Positions 9,592 through 30,369 of a DNA stretch of 64,000 bases are shown one piece after another; position 1 is the stretch's first letter, and each line of letters begins with the position of its first letter. The stretch spans positions 27,280,001 through 27,344,000 of the forward strand of contig OZ024758.1 of assembly GCA_964016885.1 (NCBI GenBank), given 5' to 3'. The position numbers and the translations under genes were made by a program. The DNA comes from Eledone cirrhosa (taxonomy: Eukaryota). The notes under the pieces are model-generated. The model was not told the DNA's origin, did not search any database, and saw nothing but the letters and a program-made list of their open reading frames with translations.

Positions 9592-9628
<37 letters not shown>

Positions 9629-9716
9629 CAAAAGTTTTATTTAAAATTGTTAGGATACAACAAGTAAATATTTTTATAACTGATATAAAGCATTCGACAA
9701 GTATTTGGAGTAGATA

Positions 9717-10119
9717 TACGATATTAATAAATGGAAACTATATTTATAAAACCATATTTATTTCATTATACATATTTCAGGGATACCAAATTAAATTATG
9801 GTATGCCTTCATCAAACAAAATACATTTTTTTTTTCTTTTTTTTTTTCTTTCCATCTCTCCGTCTTTTTCTTTCTCTCCGTCTTTTTCTAATTGTCCTTA
9901 ACACTATGACTTATTAAAATAATATAAACAACTCACTATCCGGATGGCTTCCAAAAGTAATGGTTGCATTTTAATAGGGTACGTCAAAGCTTATTTGTAA
10001 AACTGTTATATATTGTATTTTGTCTGATGAAGGCATACCATAATTTAATTTGGTATCCCTGAAATATGTATAATGCAATAAATATGGTTTTATAAATATA
10101 GTTTCCATTTATTAATATC

Positions 10120-10122
<3 letters not shown>
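9717..10122. mobile_element. Foldback element (about 105-bp arms, about 190-bp spacer) with a degenerate HHR on each arm; family shared with 29148-29501 and 56572-56725
   Basis: 9717-9824 is the reverse complement of 10014-10122. The left arm extends outward to about 9625. Flanked by (TA)n. Confidence 0.75.
10021..10073 (+). ncRNA. Degenerate type I hammerhead ribozyme motif (mirror copy at 9766-9818, - strand)
   Basis: CTGATGA-AGGCATACCA..TGGTATCCCT-GAAA-TATGTA. Core and stem II are good, stem I is poor. Confidence 0.55.
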
Positions 10123-10183
<61 letters not shown>

Positions 10184-21071: not shown

Positions 21072-21445
21072 AATAATTGTTTCTACTCTTGGCACAAGGC
21101 CAGCAATTACCCAGTACATTACTGGTACTTTATTTTATCGACCCCGTAAGGATGAAAGGCAAAGTTTACCTCGGCGGGATTTGAACTCAGATCATAAAGG
21201 GACGTAACTCTTTGATGCAAAGCATGGCGTCCGACTCTCTACCGATACTGCCAATATTCAATAATTGTTTCTACTTTTGGCACAAGGCCAGCAATTACCC
21301 AGTAAATTACTGGTACTTTATTTTATCGACCCCGTAAGGATGAAAGGCAAAGTTAACCTCGGCGGGATTTGAACTCAGACCGCAAAGGGACGTAACTATG
21401 CTGGAAAGCATGGCGTCCGACTCTCTACCGATACTGCCAATATTC
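21072..21445 (-). mobile_element. Two adjacent main-family SINE copies
   Basis: Two reverse-complement copies separated and flanked by TATTCAATAA. Confidence 0.9.
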
Positions 21446-21721
21446 AATAATGCTGGCATAACTTTCAAACCAATGTCTTTAGATGTGTTCTTCTTTCTTT
21501 TTTGAGACGCGGCAGCCAAAGTGCTTATTTTTTACCCCATCTCTATAATTACTTAATGTATTCACTTTCATTATATGTTTCTGATGACTTCTGGTGGGGA
21601 GACTTGGATCTTGTGCCGCAGTCAAGAATCCTTCAGTCTGAGCTAAATTTATTCTTTCTTTCTTTCTTTCTTTCTTCCTTTCATTCTTTTTCTTCTTTCT
21701 TCTTCTTCTTCTTATTCTTAT

Positions 21722-22388
21722 TGTGAATTGGCAGTATCGGTAGAGGGTTGGACGTCATGCTTTCTAGCATAGTTACCTCCCTTTACAGTCTAAGTTCAAA
21801 TCCCGCCGAGGTTAACTTTGCCTTTCATCCTTACGGGGTCGATAAAATAAAGTACCAGTAATGTACTGGGTAATTGCTGGCCTTGTACCTAAAGTAGAAA
21901 CAATTATTATTCTTATTCTTCTTATTCTTCTTCTTCTTATTATTATTATTGCGGTGGATTGGCAGTGTCGGTAGAGCGTTGGACGCTATGCTTTGATGCA
22001 TAGAGTTACGGCCCTTGCCATTCTGAGTTCAAATCCCGCCGAGGTTAACTTTGCCTTTCATCCTTACGGGGTCGATAAAATAAAGTACCAGTAATGTACT
22101 GGGTAATTGCTGGCCTTGTACCTAAAGTAGAAACAATTATTATTCTTATTCTTCTTATTCTTCTTCTTCTTATTATTATTATTGCGGTGGATTGGCAGTG
22201 TCGGTAGAGCGTTGGACGCTATGCTTTGATGCATAGAGTTACGGCCCTTGCCATTCTGAGTTCAAATCCTGCCGAGGTTAACTTTGCCTTTCATCCTTAC
22301 GGGGGTCGATAAAATAAAGTACCAGTAACACACTGGGTAATTTGCTGGCCTTGTGCCAAAAGTAGAAACAATTATTATTATTATTATT
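21722..22388 (+). mobile_element. Three tandem main-family SINE copies with a duplicated (TTC/TTA)n linker
   Basis: Copies start at about 21722, 21951 and 22185. The linkers at 21901-21950 and 22134-22184 are identical. Confidence 0.9.
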
Positions 22389-22932
22389 AAAGTGATAGAC
22401 GGCAGAATCTGTAGAACGACAATTTGCAACATATAGTTACGTCCCTTGACGTTATGAGTTCATATATCCCGATTAAATCGACCACATTCCTCAAAACGTA
22501 TGGCTTTGTGGCTATATTAGAAATCCTTATTATCATGCTTGAAGTAAGTTTAATAAACCTTTTTTTTTTTCTTCTCTTAAAGATGTTATCTCTAATTGAC
22601 ACTTCATTAATTTTGCACTGAAATTCAGTAAATTACCCTTTGATAGGGACATCATCACTCTCGCTTCCTTTACACATGACAAGATCAATACGCCATTTTG
22701 TTTTCTGCGGACAAAGCAAGTTTCTTTAATTATCATATTTGCTTTCCCTAAGGATATGGAATGATATGGTTGGGAATAAAAGAAATATACACTCACACAT
22801 TGATTCATGCACAAACACGCATGCATGCATACATATGTATATACATGAGAGGGAGAGAGACTATATAAGCAGAGAGGAGGAGAAAGAGCTATTTTTTGTA
22901 TAAACGTAGACGTATACATACATTCACATGAG

Positions 22933-25097: not shown

Positions 25098-25254
25098 ACA
25101 TAATATGCATACAGGTGTGTTTATAAATGTATGAAAAAAGGAATCAATACGTAACTGTAGGAGTTAGAGAAAAGCAATGAAGAATGACCTGATGCTGAAT
25201 GAAAACAAAAGCAATATATACATACACACACACACACCGACCACAACTAAATAT

Positions 25255-25795
25255 GGAATGATACGCGATGCCCCCCCCCCCCCCCACACACACAGCCCCA
25301 GCGGTCAGAATGGAGAAGGCGTTTCCCCGGAGGACAGCAAAGGAGACGCGCTGGAAAATCCACTCCAACTCGCGGGGCTTACACCTGCGGCTGGTCAGCT
25401 CAGCGCCTATGGTGGTGAGTAGGGAGGTAGTCCTGGGGCCGAGGACACTAGAAGTCTCCACTGCCAGAGGTACAACCGCAAACCTGTCAGAGAGCGACCG
25501 GTATTTGAGGAGTTTAGCCCCCTCAGCCCGACGTGCAGCAGAACCTGGGTCAGTCGCAGACTGCACCAGGATGCGGCTGCAGAAAGTGTCGGTGCAAGTG
25601 GCATCCCAGACGAGGGGTTTGCCATTGCGGAACGGGAAGATGGTCATGCCATCAGGCCTTTTGCCGTCCCCTCGGTCCAGCCCCACCGGCACGAGCTGGG
25701 AAGGGAAGCCTGCAGCGTCCAAGCCATGCTTTATTACCTCGTTGAGGGCAGCATGGCGTGGAAGGCAGCCGGCACTGTGGCGACAGGAAAGCTGG
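25255..25795 (-). pseudogene. CRE-like non-LTR retrotransposon 3' fragment (zinc knuckle end plus restriction-like endonuclease)
   Basis: SCRHSAGCLPRHAALNEVI..RPDGMT..WDATCTDT..K..KY..L..PLAVETSSVLG..FQRVSFAVLRGNA. GC-rich compared with the flanks. Confidence 0.85.
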
Positions 25796-26165
25796 TTTAA
25801 ATTTATGTATTAACAGTTTAACTTCGTTCCGCGTTGTCTTAGACGTACTTATTGAAGTCTATGACACCTAACTCGTCAGATGCTTTGAGAAAACGTCATA
25901 GAGAGGAAAAATATGGCTACCAAATGAGAATTGTTCGGAGCTTCAATTGGTTGGCTCAGGTCATATGTTGCAATGGACATTTCAGCGATAACTACACGCG
26001 AAAGATGAGAGTTTAGCGACAACAAACGACGCTGAGTATCTGCTGCCGCTGTTTCATGCGATAAGGTTGATAACTTCGGCATCATTTTCCGTATTGGCAT
26101 GCTCTATAGTTCTTCGGTGTTAGCTGTGATTGTGCAAGATGAATAAGGGTTGACTATCCTGTTTT

Positions 26166-26475: not shown

Positions 26476-26537
<62 letters not shown>

Positions 26538-26661
26538 GGAGGTGAGTTTTATTGTAGTACAATAAAGCAATGCAGATATCGGATAAGAAGCACTCTACAG
26601 TTTGTAGGACTGGAGTATACATAATATATAAGAACAAAAGATGGTTAAAGGAGTTCCATGT

Positions 26662-26730
26662 ATTTTATTATGCGCATTTCAAAAACAAATATCATCATGC
26701 AATAATATTTGTGTTTTCATCAGATAAAAC
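26662..26730 (-). ncRNA. Type I hammerhead ribozyme
   Basis: Reverse complement of 26848-26916. Confidence 0.85.
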
Positions 26731-26847
26731 AGGACATGATATGAAGGCTAAAAAACACTTGTGGATAGTTCAGTTTTAAATCAACATATGTTGATTTAAA
26801 ACTGAACTATCCACAAGTGTTTTTTAAACTTCATATCATGTCTTCCT

Positions 26848-26916
26848 GTTTTATCTGATGAAAACACAAATATTATTGCATGATGATATTTGTTTTTGAA
26901 ATGCGCATAATAAAAT
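26848..26916 (+). ncRNA. Type I hammerhead ribozyme
   Basis: GTTTTAT-CTGATGA-[16-bp stem II, loop GCAT]-GAAA-TGCGCA-TA^-ATAAAAT. Palindromic stem III ATGCGCAT, predicted cleavage after 26909. Confidence 0.85.
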
Positions 26917-26974
26917 ACATGGAACTCTTTTAACCATCTTTTGTTCTTATATATTATATATATATATATATATA

Positions 26975-27595
26975 CAGGGTGTCCCAAAAATGTATACACA
27001 CTTTGATTACCTGCACAGGCAATATTTATTAGAATGATCTACAGACATAATTCAGTTGTATGTAAACACCCCCAAAACGTTTACATAATTTAAATAATTG
27101 TTTCTACTTTTGGCACAAGGCCAGCAATTACCCAGTACATTACTGGTACTTTATTTTATCGACCCCCGTAAGGATGAAAGACAAACTTAACCTCGGCGGG
27201 ATTTGAACTCAGAATGGCAAGGGCCGCAACTCTATGCGTAAAAAGCATGACGTCGACCATCTACCGATACTGCCAATCCACCGCCCCTAATTTAAATAAT
27301 TGTTTCTACTTTAGGCACAAGGCCAGCAATTACCCAGTGCATTACTGGTACTTTATTTTATCGACCCTGTAAGGATGAAAGGCAAAGTTAACCTCGGCGG
27401 GATTTGAACTCAGATCATAAAGGGACGTAACTATGCTGGAAAGCATGGCGTCCGACCCTCTACCGATACTGCCAATCCACCATATTTAAATAATGCATAT
27501 AATTGCCCCTAATTTAAATAATGCATATAAAACAGAATTTATTTTAATGCATTTTTTAAAGATTTTGTTGTGTATACATTTTTTTGTAACACTGT
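26975..27595. mobile_element. Tc1/mariner-like MITE interrupted by two minus-strand SINEs (about 27095-27287 and 27295-27482)
   Basis: TA-CAGGGTGTCCCAAAAATGTATACAC ... GTGTATACATTTTTTTGTAACACTG-TA. A related copy lies at 12328-12405. Confidence 0.65.
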
Positions 27596-28010
27596 ATATA
27601 TCAACATCATCATCATCATCGTTTACCTGTCTACCTTCCATATGCTAAAAAGAGCTAAAGTGATCTGTGCGAAGAATTAGCGACCAATGACCTGGAATTA
27701 CTTAACACGGCGTTTCTTTAGTGTCGGTTTGTTTGTTGATAGATATTGCATTCTGCGCCAATAACTGTAGCGCCTCGCGGGGGTAGAGTTGACAGTTTCA
27801 AGCTGCAGGAGGGTAACTGGTGAATTCATCCAACATAATGTATCTAAATTTTAAAATTAATTTATCTATATTCATTTATTTTCACTATAAAATAATATAT
27901 GTAATTGATGTTTTTTACACGTTATCTAAAAACGAAAATAAAAGCTTACTTTATTCTAATTAATTTATTTATATATATATAGTTATGTAATAAACAACAT
28001 AAGGCAATTA

Positions 28011-28071
28011 TTCCATTTACCAGTGGTTTCTTAAAAGCAAAAAAATGTTGCTTTCAATCATCAGAATGAAA
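28011..28071 (-). ncRNA. Type I hammerhead ribozyme
   Basis: Mirror of 28164-28224, with one A-to-G change in stem I that keeps a G-U pair. Confidence 0.85.
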
Positions 28072-28163
28072 AAATCCTGGAGTATTTATTGACGTTGGAT
28101 TTTAAAAACAAAAAATGCAATCTATATACTCAATAAATACAATCAATAAATACTCCAGGATTT

Positions 28164-28224
28164 TTTCATTCTGATGATTGAAAGCAACATTTTTTTGCTT
28201 TTAAGAAACCACTGGTAAATGAAA
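28164..28224 (+). ncRNA. Type I hammerhead ribozyme
   Basis: TTTCATT-CTGATGA-TTGAAAGCAA..TTGCTTTTAA-GAAA-CCACTGG-TA^-AATGAAA. GUA cleavage predicted after 28217. Confidence 0.88.
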
Positions 28225-28316
28225 TAATTGCCTTATGTTGTTTATTACATAACTATTAAGCTCTGTTACCTACATAGAGCACTCTTTTTTCCTGGACTTT
28301 TCCGACGGAATTACTT

Positions 28317-28373
<57 letters not shown>

Positions 28374-28510
28374 GAGAGAGAGAAAAAAAAAGCAAGTTTG
28401 TTCATAAAGTTGAAATATAAACTTACTCCGTATTTTGACAAACGAAGTTAGTCTGATAGTGAGGTTTTTAAAACCCTCTGAATGGAAACGGGATGAGTAG
28501 TGACCTACAT

Positions 28511-28571
<61 letters not shown>

Positions 28572-28786
28572 CCATCCAGGGAGTGTAACGCGAGTTTTCT
28601 GTAGGAGTAACCATTCGTCCGGACGCCATGCTTTGCAGCATAGAGTTACGGTCCTTTACGGTCTGAGTTCAAATCCCGCCGAGGTTAACTTTGCCGTTCA
28701 TCCTTACGGTGTCGATAAAATAAAGTACCAGTAATGTATTGGGGTAATTGCTGGCCTTGTGCCTAAAGTAGAAACAATTATTATTT

Positions 28787-28838
<52 letters not shown>

Positions 28839-28839
28839 A

Positions 28840-29014
28840 AAGGAATTGTGGTAAGGAACCAAATAGACCATATCGCACCAGAGTACTCAATACTTAGTGT
28901 AATAGAGTGGGAAATAGGAAAAAGTATGACCCCGACGGCAGAGCTCAAGCCGTTTCGACGGCTATTTCTGGAGTCCAACCGCTTGAGCTCTGCCGTCGGA
29001 GTCACACTTTTTCC

Positions 29015-29017
<3 letters not shown>
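28840..29017. mobile_element. (TA)n-inserted hairpin element; second copy at 40860-41056
   Basis: Shared GTGGTAAGGAACCA..TACTCAATACTTAG leader and a GC-rich inverted repeat CCGACGGCAGAGCTCAAGC / GCTTGAGCTCTGCCGTCGG. Confidence 0.7.
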
Positions 29018-29050
<33 letters not shown>

Positions 29051-29147
29051 TATATATATAGAGATATTTAATTTGCTGGTAATTCAACAAATTTATTTAT
29101 AACAGATTCGAAGCACTCGACAAGCTTCCTGGAGTATAATATCAATG

Positions 29148-29501
29148 ATATCAATGATATTAATAAATGGAAACTATATTTATAAAACCATATTTATTTT
29201 ATTATATATATTTCAAGGGTACCAAAAACTTTAGTATGCCTCATCAGATAAGTTACAAAATTTGTTTTATAAATAGTGGCATATCCAAGAAACCAGACCT
29301 TATCGGTTCAAGTTCTGTTTCGATGGTAAAACAGAACCTGAACCGATAAGGCCTGATTTCTCGGGTATGCCACTATTTATAAAACAAATTTTGTAACTTA
29401 TCTGATGAGGCATACTAAAGTTTTTGGTACCCTTGAAATATATATAATAAAATAAATATGGTTTTATAAATATAGTTTCCATTTATTAACATCATTGATA
29501 T
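29148..29501. mobile_element. Foldback element (about 170-bp arms, about 8-nt loop) with a degenerate HHR on each arm
   Basis: Mirror ORFs METIFIKPY on both strands. CTGATGA at 29402 and GAAA at 29435 on + strand, mirrored near 29200-29250. Left tail 29060-29147 is homologous to 9630-9716. Confidence 0.8.
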
Positions 29502-30369
29502 ATATATATATATATATGTGTTCAATGCTACAATGAAAACAAAAAAGGATGATATCTGTGTACATATGCATAAAAATTAATTGTTAGCTAAAATGAAAGA
29601 TTATGGTCAGTATCCGGAATAGAGTCGAGGATATTCATAAGATTGAAGATTCCAACAATTTTTTTTTTGTGTTTAGCAGCACCACGGTATCGCTTCTTTG
29701 ACTTTTCTGGTTCTCTTCCTGGCGTGTATTGCTCAATTTGTGCCTTGTTATAAATATAGATAAATATAGGCGACGAATTGGCAGAGTCGTTAAGACCTCG
29801 GATAGAATACCTTACGGTATTCGTTCCACCTCATTGCGCTCTCTGAGTTGAAATCCCACCGGGTTCAATATTGCCGTTCATCCTTTCTAGGTCGATAAAA
29901 AAGTACCAGTCCAGTACTGGGGTCGATTCTTCCTCTATAGAAAAAATCGGCTGTGTTTAGACCTGGAGACAGTTGGGCTCTGCCAGGTTCAAAAGTGCCT
30001 TAGACACCGCGTTTGACGGTGCCTCTACAACTCCACAAGGAATTATGAGATCTTTATATTTATCCTATAAATACTGGAGTGGTGAGCTGAGTTATTTTGT
30101 TTTTTTGGCAACATCTGGAGAACTTCAACTGTACACTTTCCACATTGTGTGTTGAAAGGATGACGGTTGTCGAGCTTTCCCTAACTCTTTAGTGTTCAAA
30201 CCGGCCAAAACCGGCCAGAATTCTCTACCTCTTTCTGTTGAAACTGGCTGTAACTGGTCACTCAAACTGATCTTAAGGTATTGTTCTCAAAATAAATACT
30301 TTCAAAATCTCGTAGATGCAATATGTGAGGTAAAGCCTTTTACATGAAAATATAATAGCATATATAAAA

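Follow-up and report, generated by a model that had tools for sequence, protein, structure and literature searches.

A loopless palindrome with a hammerhead motif in each arm is probably a pseudo-LTR-only insertion of an abundant Penelope-like element

We analysed a 64-kb stretch of Eledone cirrhosa DNA (hereafter, the window), which is AT-rich, microsatellite-rich and eukaryote-like, and which contains a palindrome with a hammerhead ribozyme motif in each arm. We conclude that the two ribozymes are one ribozyme duplicated head to head, and we consider it highly probable that the palindrome is an insertion of just the pseudo-LTR, together with its mirror image, of a very abundant endonuclease-type Penelope-like element (PLE). 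A one-sided tail, a (TA)n target, a high copy number and four similar insertions in the window all point to a PLE insertion. An earlier note on this DNA had caught the palindrome but missed these four features. The observations on which we draw concern the anatomy of the unit, the abundance of its family, two kinds of 3′ end, several joints and conservation of the structure on the sense strand.

The centre of symmetry lies between positions 26787 and 26788, with a spacer of 0 nt, and the symmetry is perfect over 39 bp on each side; the loopless palindrome with a perfect centre that had been described from the letters alone is thus borne out. Over 26616-26962 the arms are self-complementary at 96%. 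They differ by two adjacent substitutions (26747-48), by a 3-nt indel near 26732, by a substitution at 26650 and by another at the outer edge. The palindrome is real, but the bounds first given to it (26621..26957) are too narrow: because positions 26535-26615 are covered in the family data in the same way as the arm, this 81-nt tail also belongs to the element, which makes it larger than first reported. Tracts of (TA)n lie on both flanks of the palindrome unit, and would mask any target-site duplication. The parts of the unit are as follows.

26479..26534, no strand: (TA)n microsatellite, presumed target site, left part (from sequence)
26535..26615, minus strand: one-sided 3′ tail of 81 nt, without a right-arm counterpart (from family coverage in 4/4 runs)
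26616-26787, minus strand: left arm of 172 nt, a pseudo-LTR-like copy with its 5′ end at the centre, reading outward
26661..26731, minus strand: minimal type I hammerhead of the left arm, with core 26723-26717, GAAA 26680-26677 and H17 26669
26787..26788, no strand: loopless head-to-head junction (from joints in the family data)
26788-26962, plus strand: right arm of 175 nt, a tail-less copy running into (TA)n (from sequence)
26847..26917, plus strand: minimal type I hammerhead of the right arm, with core 26855-26861 and GAAA 26898-26901
26955..26974, no strand: (TA)n microsatellite, target, right part (from sequence)

Part of the stretch was present in 20 of 24 rows of public sequencing runs, from 15 studies and with no RNA run among those listed as containing it, a spread to which carry-over of a high-copy repeat may have contributed. 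We used positions 26535-26787 (the left arm and its flank) as the reference for a comparison with four of the 24 runs, X1, X22, X4 and X9. Family records comprised 3657 contigs in X1, 5044 raw reads in X22, 32 contigs in X4 and 27 contigs in X9; the signal in X4 and X9 was low, and X22, a reduced-representation library, is biased towards a small number of loci. In X1 the arm reached a summed depth, which is not the same as true copy number, of ~2.07 M where its coverage was highest (26643-26678), against ~0.89 M for the tail; the arm:tail ratio of 2.3 had no clean equivalent in X22. Dividing X1 depth by 26, the median depth of eight listed records, puts the family at ~10^4-10^5 copies, an order of magnitude at best. 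Both tailed and tail-less 3′ ends occur in the family, and the tail-less kind is frequent: 47 contigs of X1 and 268 reads of X22 had loose (TA)n ends before 26616. A 24-nt motif was absent (0 matches) from the metagenome, viral and prokaryote contigs scanned.

Four joints between opposite strands were recorded in the family. Single contigs gave 26721/26787 and 26603/26696; 26628/26787 came from 3 contigs and from 78 reads (2 starts), and 26565/26787 from 97 reads (1 start). The three that involve 26787 have no letters recorded between the joined positions. Because three of these four joints, which come from few contigs or read starts and from a reference stretch that stopped at 26787, use that same position, 26787 looks like a recurrent, fixed 5′ start of the family, the other arm being cut at varying places. 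The earlier suggestion to check whether the same centre recurs at other loci gave a divided answer. An X9 contig has the same centre letters, but is flanked by unrelated sequence and has the majority allele at position 26770, and its run bears another organism label; from the differences in allele and flank, the centre is present at another locus. However, no 26787/26787 joint was among those listed in the four runs. An X4 contig of a diverged copy stops 15 letters beyond the centre, as an exact palindrome would in an assembly graph with k = 31, the value that we presume was used, and one X4 record extends 35 letters beyond the centre without a called joint. Among the records listed from the four runs, no read or contig bridged the full locus.

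The CUGAUGA core occurs at +26855 and at -26723, and both hammerheads point outward from the centre. In the right arm, stem III occupies 26901-26908, and cleavage is predicted after 26909 on the plus strand. Stem I is 8 bp, including one G.U pair, and not 7 bp as first reported; the long stem II and AUA site described for each arm were seen again, stem II being ~15 bp with one C.U mismatch. Stem III is the palindromic AUGCGCAU, of 8 nt. Both arms contain the elements of a minimal type I core (CUGANGA, GAAA, NUH, and stems I and II). Pair 10.1-11.1 is A-U in the studied copy and not G10.1-C11.1, and family variants toward G and C were seen at 10.1 and 11.1, individually. The core of the complete hammerhead that had been claimed for each arm is therefore intact, but the 10.1-11.1 pair departs from the usual G-C, and folding models predict a stable stem III only when two molecules pair.

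A strict motif scan found 7 matches in the window, compared with a mean of 0.08 and a maximum of 1 in 50 shuffles. A relaxed scan found 12 (mean of 0.23 in 30 shuffles) and missed one of the families described below (B1); its match at +31654 was set aside as weak. Rfam gave 0 matches at gathering score across the 64-kb window and, at E up to 10 over 26500-29600, 53 matches with 0 hammerheads among them. We dismissed these 53 sub-gathering matches, mostly to microRNA hairpin models, as chance matches to long stems.

A transcript of the full unit is predicted to fold into a single rod at -251.2 kcal/mol, in which hammerhead pairs have a probability of <1e-17. These predictions agree with the earlier proposal that a rod formed from either strand would block ribozyme folding. 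In a lone arm, stem I is predicted to form ~4% of the time. Two same-sense copies are predicted to share an 8-bp intermolecular helix III, their cofold lying 12.1 kcal/mol below two monomers. The rod could also be a substrate for ADAR or a source of siRNA.

We tallied 40 of 50 variant rows of the family. Eleven variants fell within hammerhead stems, and pairing was kept on the sense strand in 9/11 but on the antisense strand in only 4/11. For stems I and II, sense pairing survived in 9 of 10 variants (binomial P = 0.029 against an expectation of 0.57 per transition); the tenth, combined with another family variant, would create G10.1-C11.1. The sole variant of the universal core bases among the rows examined was at N7. 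A stem III variant, at 26675, disrupts the AUGCGCAU palindrome. Because the variants preserve sense, not antisense, pairing, they indicate that the hammerhead is conserved in one polarity and that the second polarity arises by duplication. We infer that the hammerhead is the family's ordinary dimer-type motif, selected in the element's own transcript. Sense A-to-G variants were in excess, which might be a trace of ADAR in the templates; tolerance of G.U pairs explains the excess.

The window contains four further head-to-head hammerhead insertions, whose spacers measure 8, 32-50, 188 and 321 nt and which belong to other families or subfamilies. All four are bordered by (TA)n at their ends or close to them, and all carry additional sequence on a single side. 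These insertions, a further tailed end and a coding PLE remnant are listed here.

9625-10128, no strand: family B2, with arms 9711-9825 and 10014-10128, a 188-nt spacer and C3U in the left core
27979-28315 (pair 27979-28256), no strand: family C, with a 32-50-nt spacer, a stem III palindrome of 9 nt, ACCACUGGU, and additional sequence at right
29075-29501 (pair 29148-29501), no strand: family B1, with 173-nt arms, an 8-nt spacer, a left tail and stem III AUAUAUAU
41068-42048 (pair 41068-41884), no strand: family D, with 248-nt arms, a 321-nt spacer and ~165 nt extra at right
46050-47430, minus strand: 5′-truncated Neptune/Nematis-type PLE, with a GIY-YIG ORF remnant, a 3′ hammerhead and a probable inverted tail
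56572-56728, no strand: tailed end of a family B copy, adjoining the N gap 56372-56571

The hammerhead core of family D is CCGAAGA (U4C) in both arms. The tail of the studied element (26535-26615) aligns with the B1 tail at 29.1 kb (0/2000 shuffles) and with B2 at 9.7 kb (5/2000), and has no significant alignment with the family C tail at 28.3 kb (246/2000 shuffles). In two short related palindromes beside (TA)n, at 28914-29017 and 40935-41056, motif scans found no hammerhead. The window also holds a retrozyme-like array at 42260-43850 (minus strand), a same-strand tandem of ~470 nt with a type I hammerhead per unit (-43493, -43019, -42555); a fourth, diverged unit of this hammerhead repeat lies at 40340-40650 on the same strand (-40610). 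A ~200-nt SINE-like repeat, which we take to resemble octopus SINEs, is very abundant and often tandem or inverted (27085-27484, 28620-28782, 21072-22465 and many other places).

The ORF remnant at 46572-47369(-) was placed by the ESM atlas with GIY-YIG and HTH_animal clusters (0.96-0.97), and shares 60% identity with an RT-domain protein of Octopus vulgaris (E 5.6e-74; 3 matches among 225 candidates). This match, together with the SINE resemblance, makes an octopod host probable. Its GIY-YIG motif is preceded by a CX4CxxC linker, given as a mark of Neptune and Nematis PLEs in the consulted part of PMC8557442, and a hammerhead lies 3′ of the ORF remnant, at -46265. The last 37-56 nt of the PLE remnant match both arms of a mini palindrome (42067-42143) at 91-95%, and an extra 57-nt segment at the 5′ end of the remnant matches a one-sided extension of the mini palindrome (42067-42207) at 84%. 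Judged by this match, the 57-nt segment is probably an inverted tail. Since the remnant and the mini palindrome share both an end and an extension, a coding PLE in the same genome builds such structures. Pfam gave 0 families for the PLE ORF remnant and for 25147-25809, and RVT_1 was below threshold in one of three homologues. In tblastn searches of the window, three PLE proteins matched only the 46.6-47.4 kb remnant. BLASTN gave no match between the PLE remnant and the studied palindrome element, and the two belong to different families; no PLE coding sequence in the window could thus be linked to the family of the palindrome. Other retroelement-like ORF remnants lie at 63082-63654 (+), where RVT_1 was below cut-off (E 4.4e-06), and at 25144-25809 (-) and 50739-51443 (-).

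How tandem or inverted PLE insertions form is stated to be an open question in the consulted parts of two studies (PMC8557442, PMC11167929). The consulted part of one of them (Frangieh et al. 2024, PMC11167929) reports that a PLE protein cleaves and extends both strands of AT-rich DNA, that its RT initiates at two sites bounding the tail, that the protein is predicted to be a dimer, and that hammerhead cleavage is dispensable in vitro for the activity of the protein. If the palindrome is a PLE insertion, the RT/GIY-YIG protein of a putative autonomous partner would nick AT-rich (TA)n DNA on both strands, and reverse transcription would be primed at two RNA sites, the end of the tail for one cDNA and the start of the tail for the other. 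Both cDNAs would extend to the 5′ end of the RNA, 67 nt ahead of the hammerhead core, and would then be joined. Arrival of both at the same 5′ start (26787) would give a loopless palindrome, and earlier stops would give uneven joints and spacers. Alternatively, the second arm would arise by self-priming fold-back from one cDNA. The rod would be a by-product that locks the hammerhead off in any read-through transcript of the studied insertion.

The arms share some rare alleles, at 26770 (4% in X1, 8% in X22) and at 26634 (20% in X1, 4% in X22), and differ at common ones. The right-arm allele at 26650 accounts for 55, 40, 45 and 31% in X1, X22, X4 and X9, respectively, and that at 26748 for 55, 78, 19 and 58%. 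The exact 3-nt indel allele of the right arm occurs in other family copies, at only 2% in X1. Because rare alleles are shared and common ones differ, simple fold-back followed by private mutation predicts the pattern poorly. It would fit with two templates drawn from a single source lineage, with conversion by other copies or with the palindrome being copied whole, and the arm differences at the two sites near 55:45 in X1 (26650 and 26748) also fit whole-palindrome copying. One extended reading, possible but rather unlikely, is that the arms come from two RNA templates of one lineage through a dimeric PLE enzyme that primes both strands, or that the unit is a self-propagating palindrome with a fixed centre, and that such copies are a main source of the long perfect dsRNA in octopus hyper-editing.

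We think it unlikely that a PLE-derived non-autonomous element was amplified intact as an asymmetric palindrome, with a fixed centre and with separate alleles in its tailed and tail-less arms; tail-primed reverse transcription of a read-through hairpin RNA would be one way to do so. Such amplification is consistent with the right-arm alleles at 26650 and 26748 each making up 55% of X1 depth, with the arm:tail depth of 2.3, with the recurrence of the centre in the X9 contig and with the X4 contig that stops 15 letters past it. However, the share of these two alleles shows no steady half in X22, X4 and X9 (40/78, 45/19 and 31/58%), the exact 3-nt allele of the right arm stands at 2% in X1, and the rare alleles shared at 26770 and 26634 (4% and 20% in X1) would need copying from arm to arm. 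Moreover, the family has four other joints, and spacer length varies in the window's other families.

A MITE or foldback DNA transposon (Tc1/mariner-like, with a TA target) that carries a hammerhead in its inverted repeats by chance would also be palindromic, short, high-copy and within TA. We regard this origin as very improbable, since the terminal symmetry is broken by an 81-nt tail at one end without a mirror, the stems are conserved at the RNA level on one strand, the build is common to several unrelated hammerhead families, and the window holds a PLE ORF remnant built in a similar way. Equally improbable is an assembly or library fold-back artefact at the locus. Perfect palindromes are hard to assemble, no bridging record was among those listed, and runs X1-X3 may be the source sample; but the earlier argument that the arm differences speak against an artefact holds, in that the arms differ internally and three right-arm alleles also occur in other family copies. 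In addition, the centre was seen again in a run with another organism label, and five such structures with differing spacers lie within 64 kb. The viroid-like ambisense organisation to which the earlier note likened the unit is scarcely credible: an integrated viroid-like or retrozyme-like ambisense replicon would account for a ribozyme on each strand, opposed in a rod as in FHVd-LR (consulted part of PMC7461866), but the two ribozymes are identical copies of one, antisense pairing is not conserved, the single site per strand with no same-polarity tandem means that no unit-length RNA or circle can be released, and the family is one of high-copy genomic DNA with a retroelement tail and target.

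The single locus is ordinary, and the family is the useful part. In a family of this size, arm-to-arm alleles can separate fold-back, two-template priming and whole-unit copying computationally; if the two-template or fixed-centre reading were true, arm allele patterns over tens of thousands of copies would be a direct record of the way in which inverted PLE insertions are assembled. In octopus, an exceptionally large fraction of loci can form long near-perfect dsRNA, and in a frog a palindromic repeat partly accounts for heavy editing (consulted part of PMC5625713). Given that five such hairpins lie in 64 kb, PLE end palindromes are a candidate source of octopus long dsRNA.

In the openly accessible literature on octopus and cephalopod Penelope elements, hammerheads, palindromes and twin priming, we met no account of this family, although supplements or Repbase may already list the sequence. 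Among known systems, hammerhead viroids and viroid-like RNAs of the FHVd-LR type (consulted part of PMC7461866) resemble the unit in that ribozyme motifs of the two polarities lie opposite each other within a rod. In contrast to the studied unit, which is a genomic inverted duplication of one motif, those RNAs replicate as circles and their ribozymes are active. Non-LTR retrozymes (Li et al. 2026, bioRxiv 10.64898/2026.07.22.740005; PMC7229834) are, like the studied unit, non-coding, carry a type I hammerhead and are proposed to be PLE-derived. However, they release circles, and Li et al. define them as same-strand tandems, with at least two tandem hammerhead units on the same strand; the studied unit is inverted and has one hammerhead, and one site, per strand.

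The hammerheads themselves are closest in form to the minimal hammerheads of metazoan PLEs. According to the consulted part of Cervera and de la Pena 2014 (PMC4209133), PLE pseudo-LTRs carry minimal dimer-type hammerheads with low in vitro activity, and dual minimal hammerheads ~100-700 bp apart on opposite strands probably derive from truncated PLEs. The studied motifs share with these the type I architecture, a long helix II, a short palindromic helix III that needs a dimer, and the pairing on opposite strands at 100-700 bp. They differ in their helix II of ~15 bp, their helix I of 8 bp and their A-U pair at 10.1-11.1 in place of G-C.

For the insertion as a whole, the closest known system is the EN+ PLE insertions with an inverted pseudo-LTR and a tail, likely of the Neptune/Nematis type. 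Arkhipova et al. 2013 (PMC3846280) describe, in the part consulted, inverted pseudo-LTRs with a tail on one of them and palindromes at head-to-head junctions, for which self-priming was proposed. The consulted part of Craig et al. 2021 (PMC8557442) describes insertions with an adjacent inverted 5′-truncated copy, a tail at one end, (TA)n targets and hammerheads near the 3′ ends. The studied unit differs from these in lacking an ORF, in that both arms reach one 5′ start and so leave no loop, and in its tail of 81 nt, compared with 30-40 nt for the published tails in the parts consulted. It has in common with them a head-to-head inverted copy at the 5′ end, a palindrome at the junction, a tail at one end, a (TA)n target, a hammerhead in the terminal repeat and joints that vary among copies.
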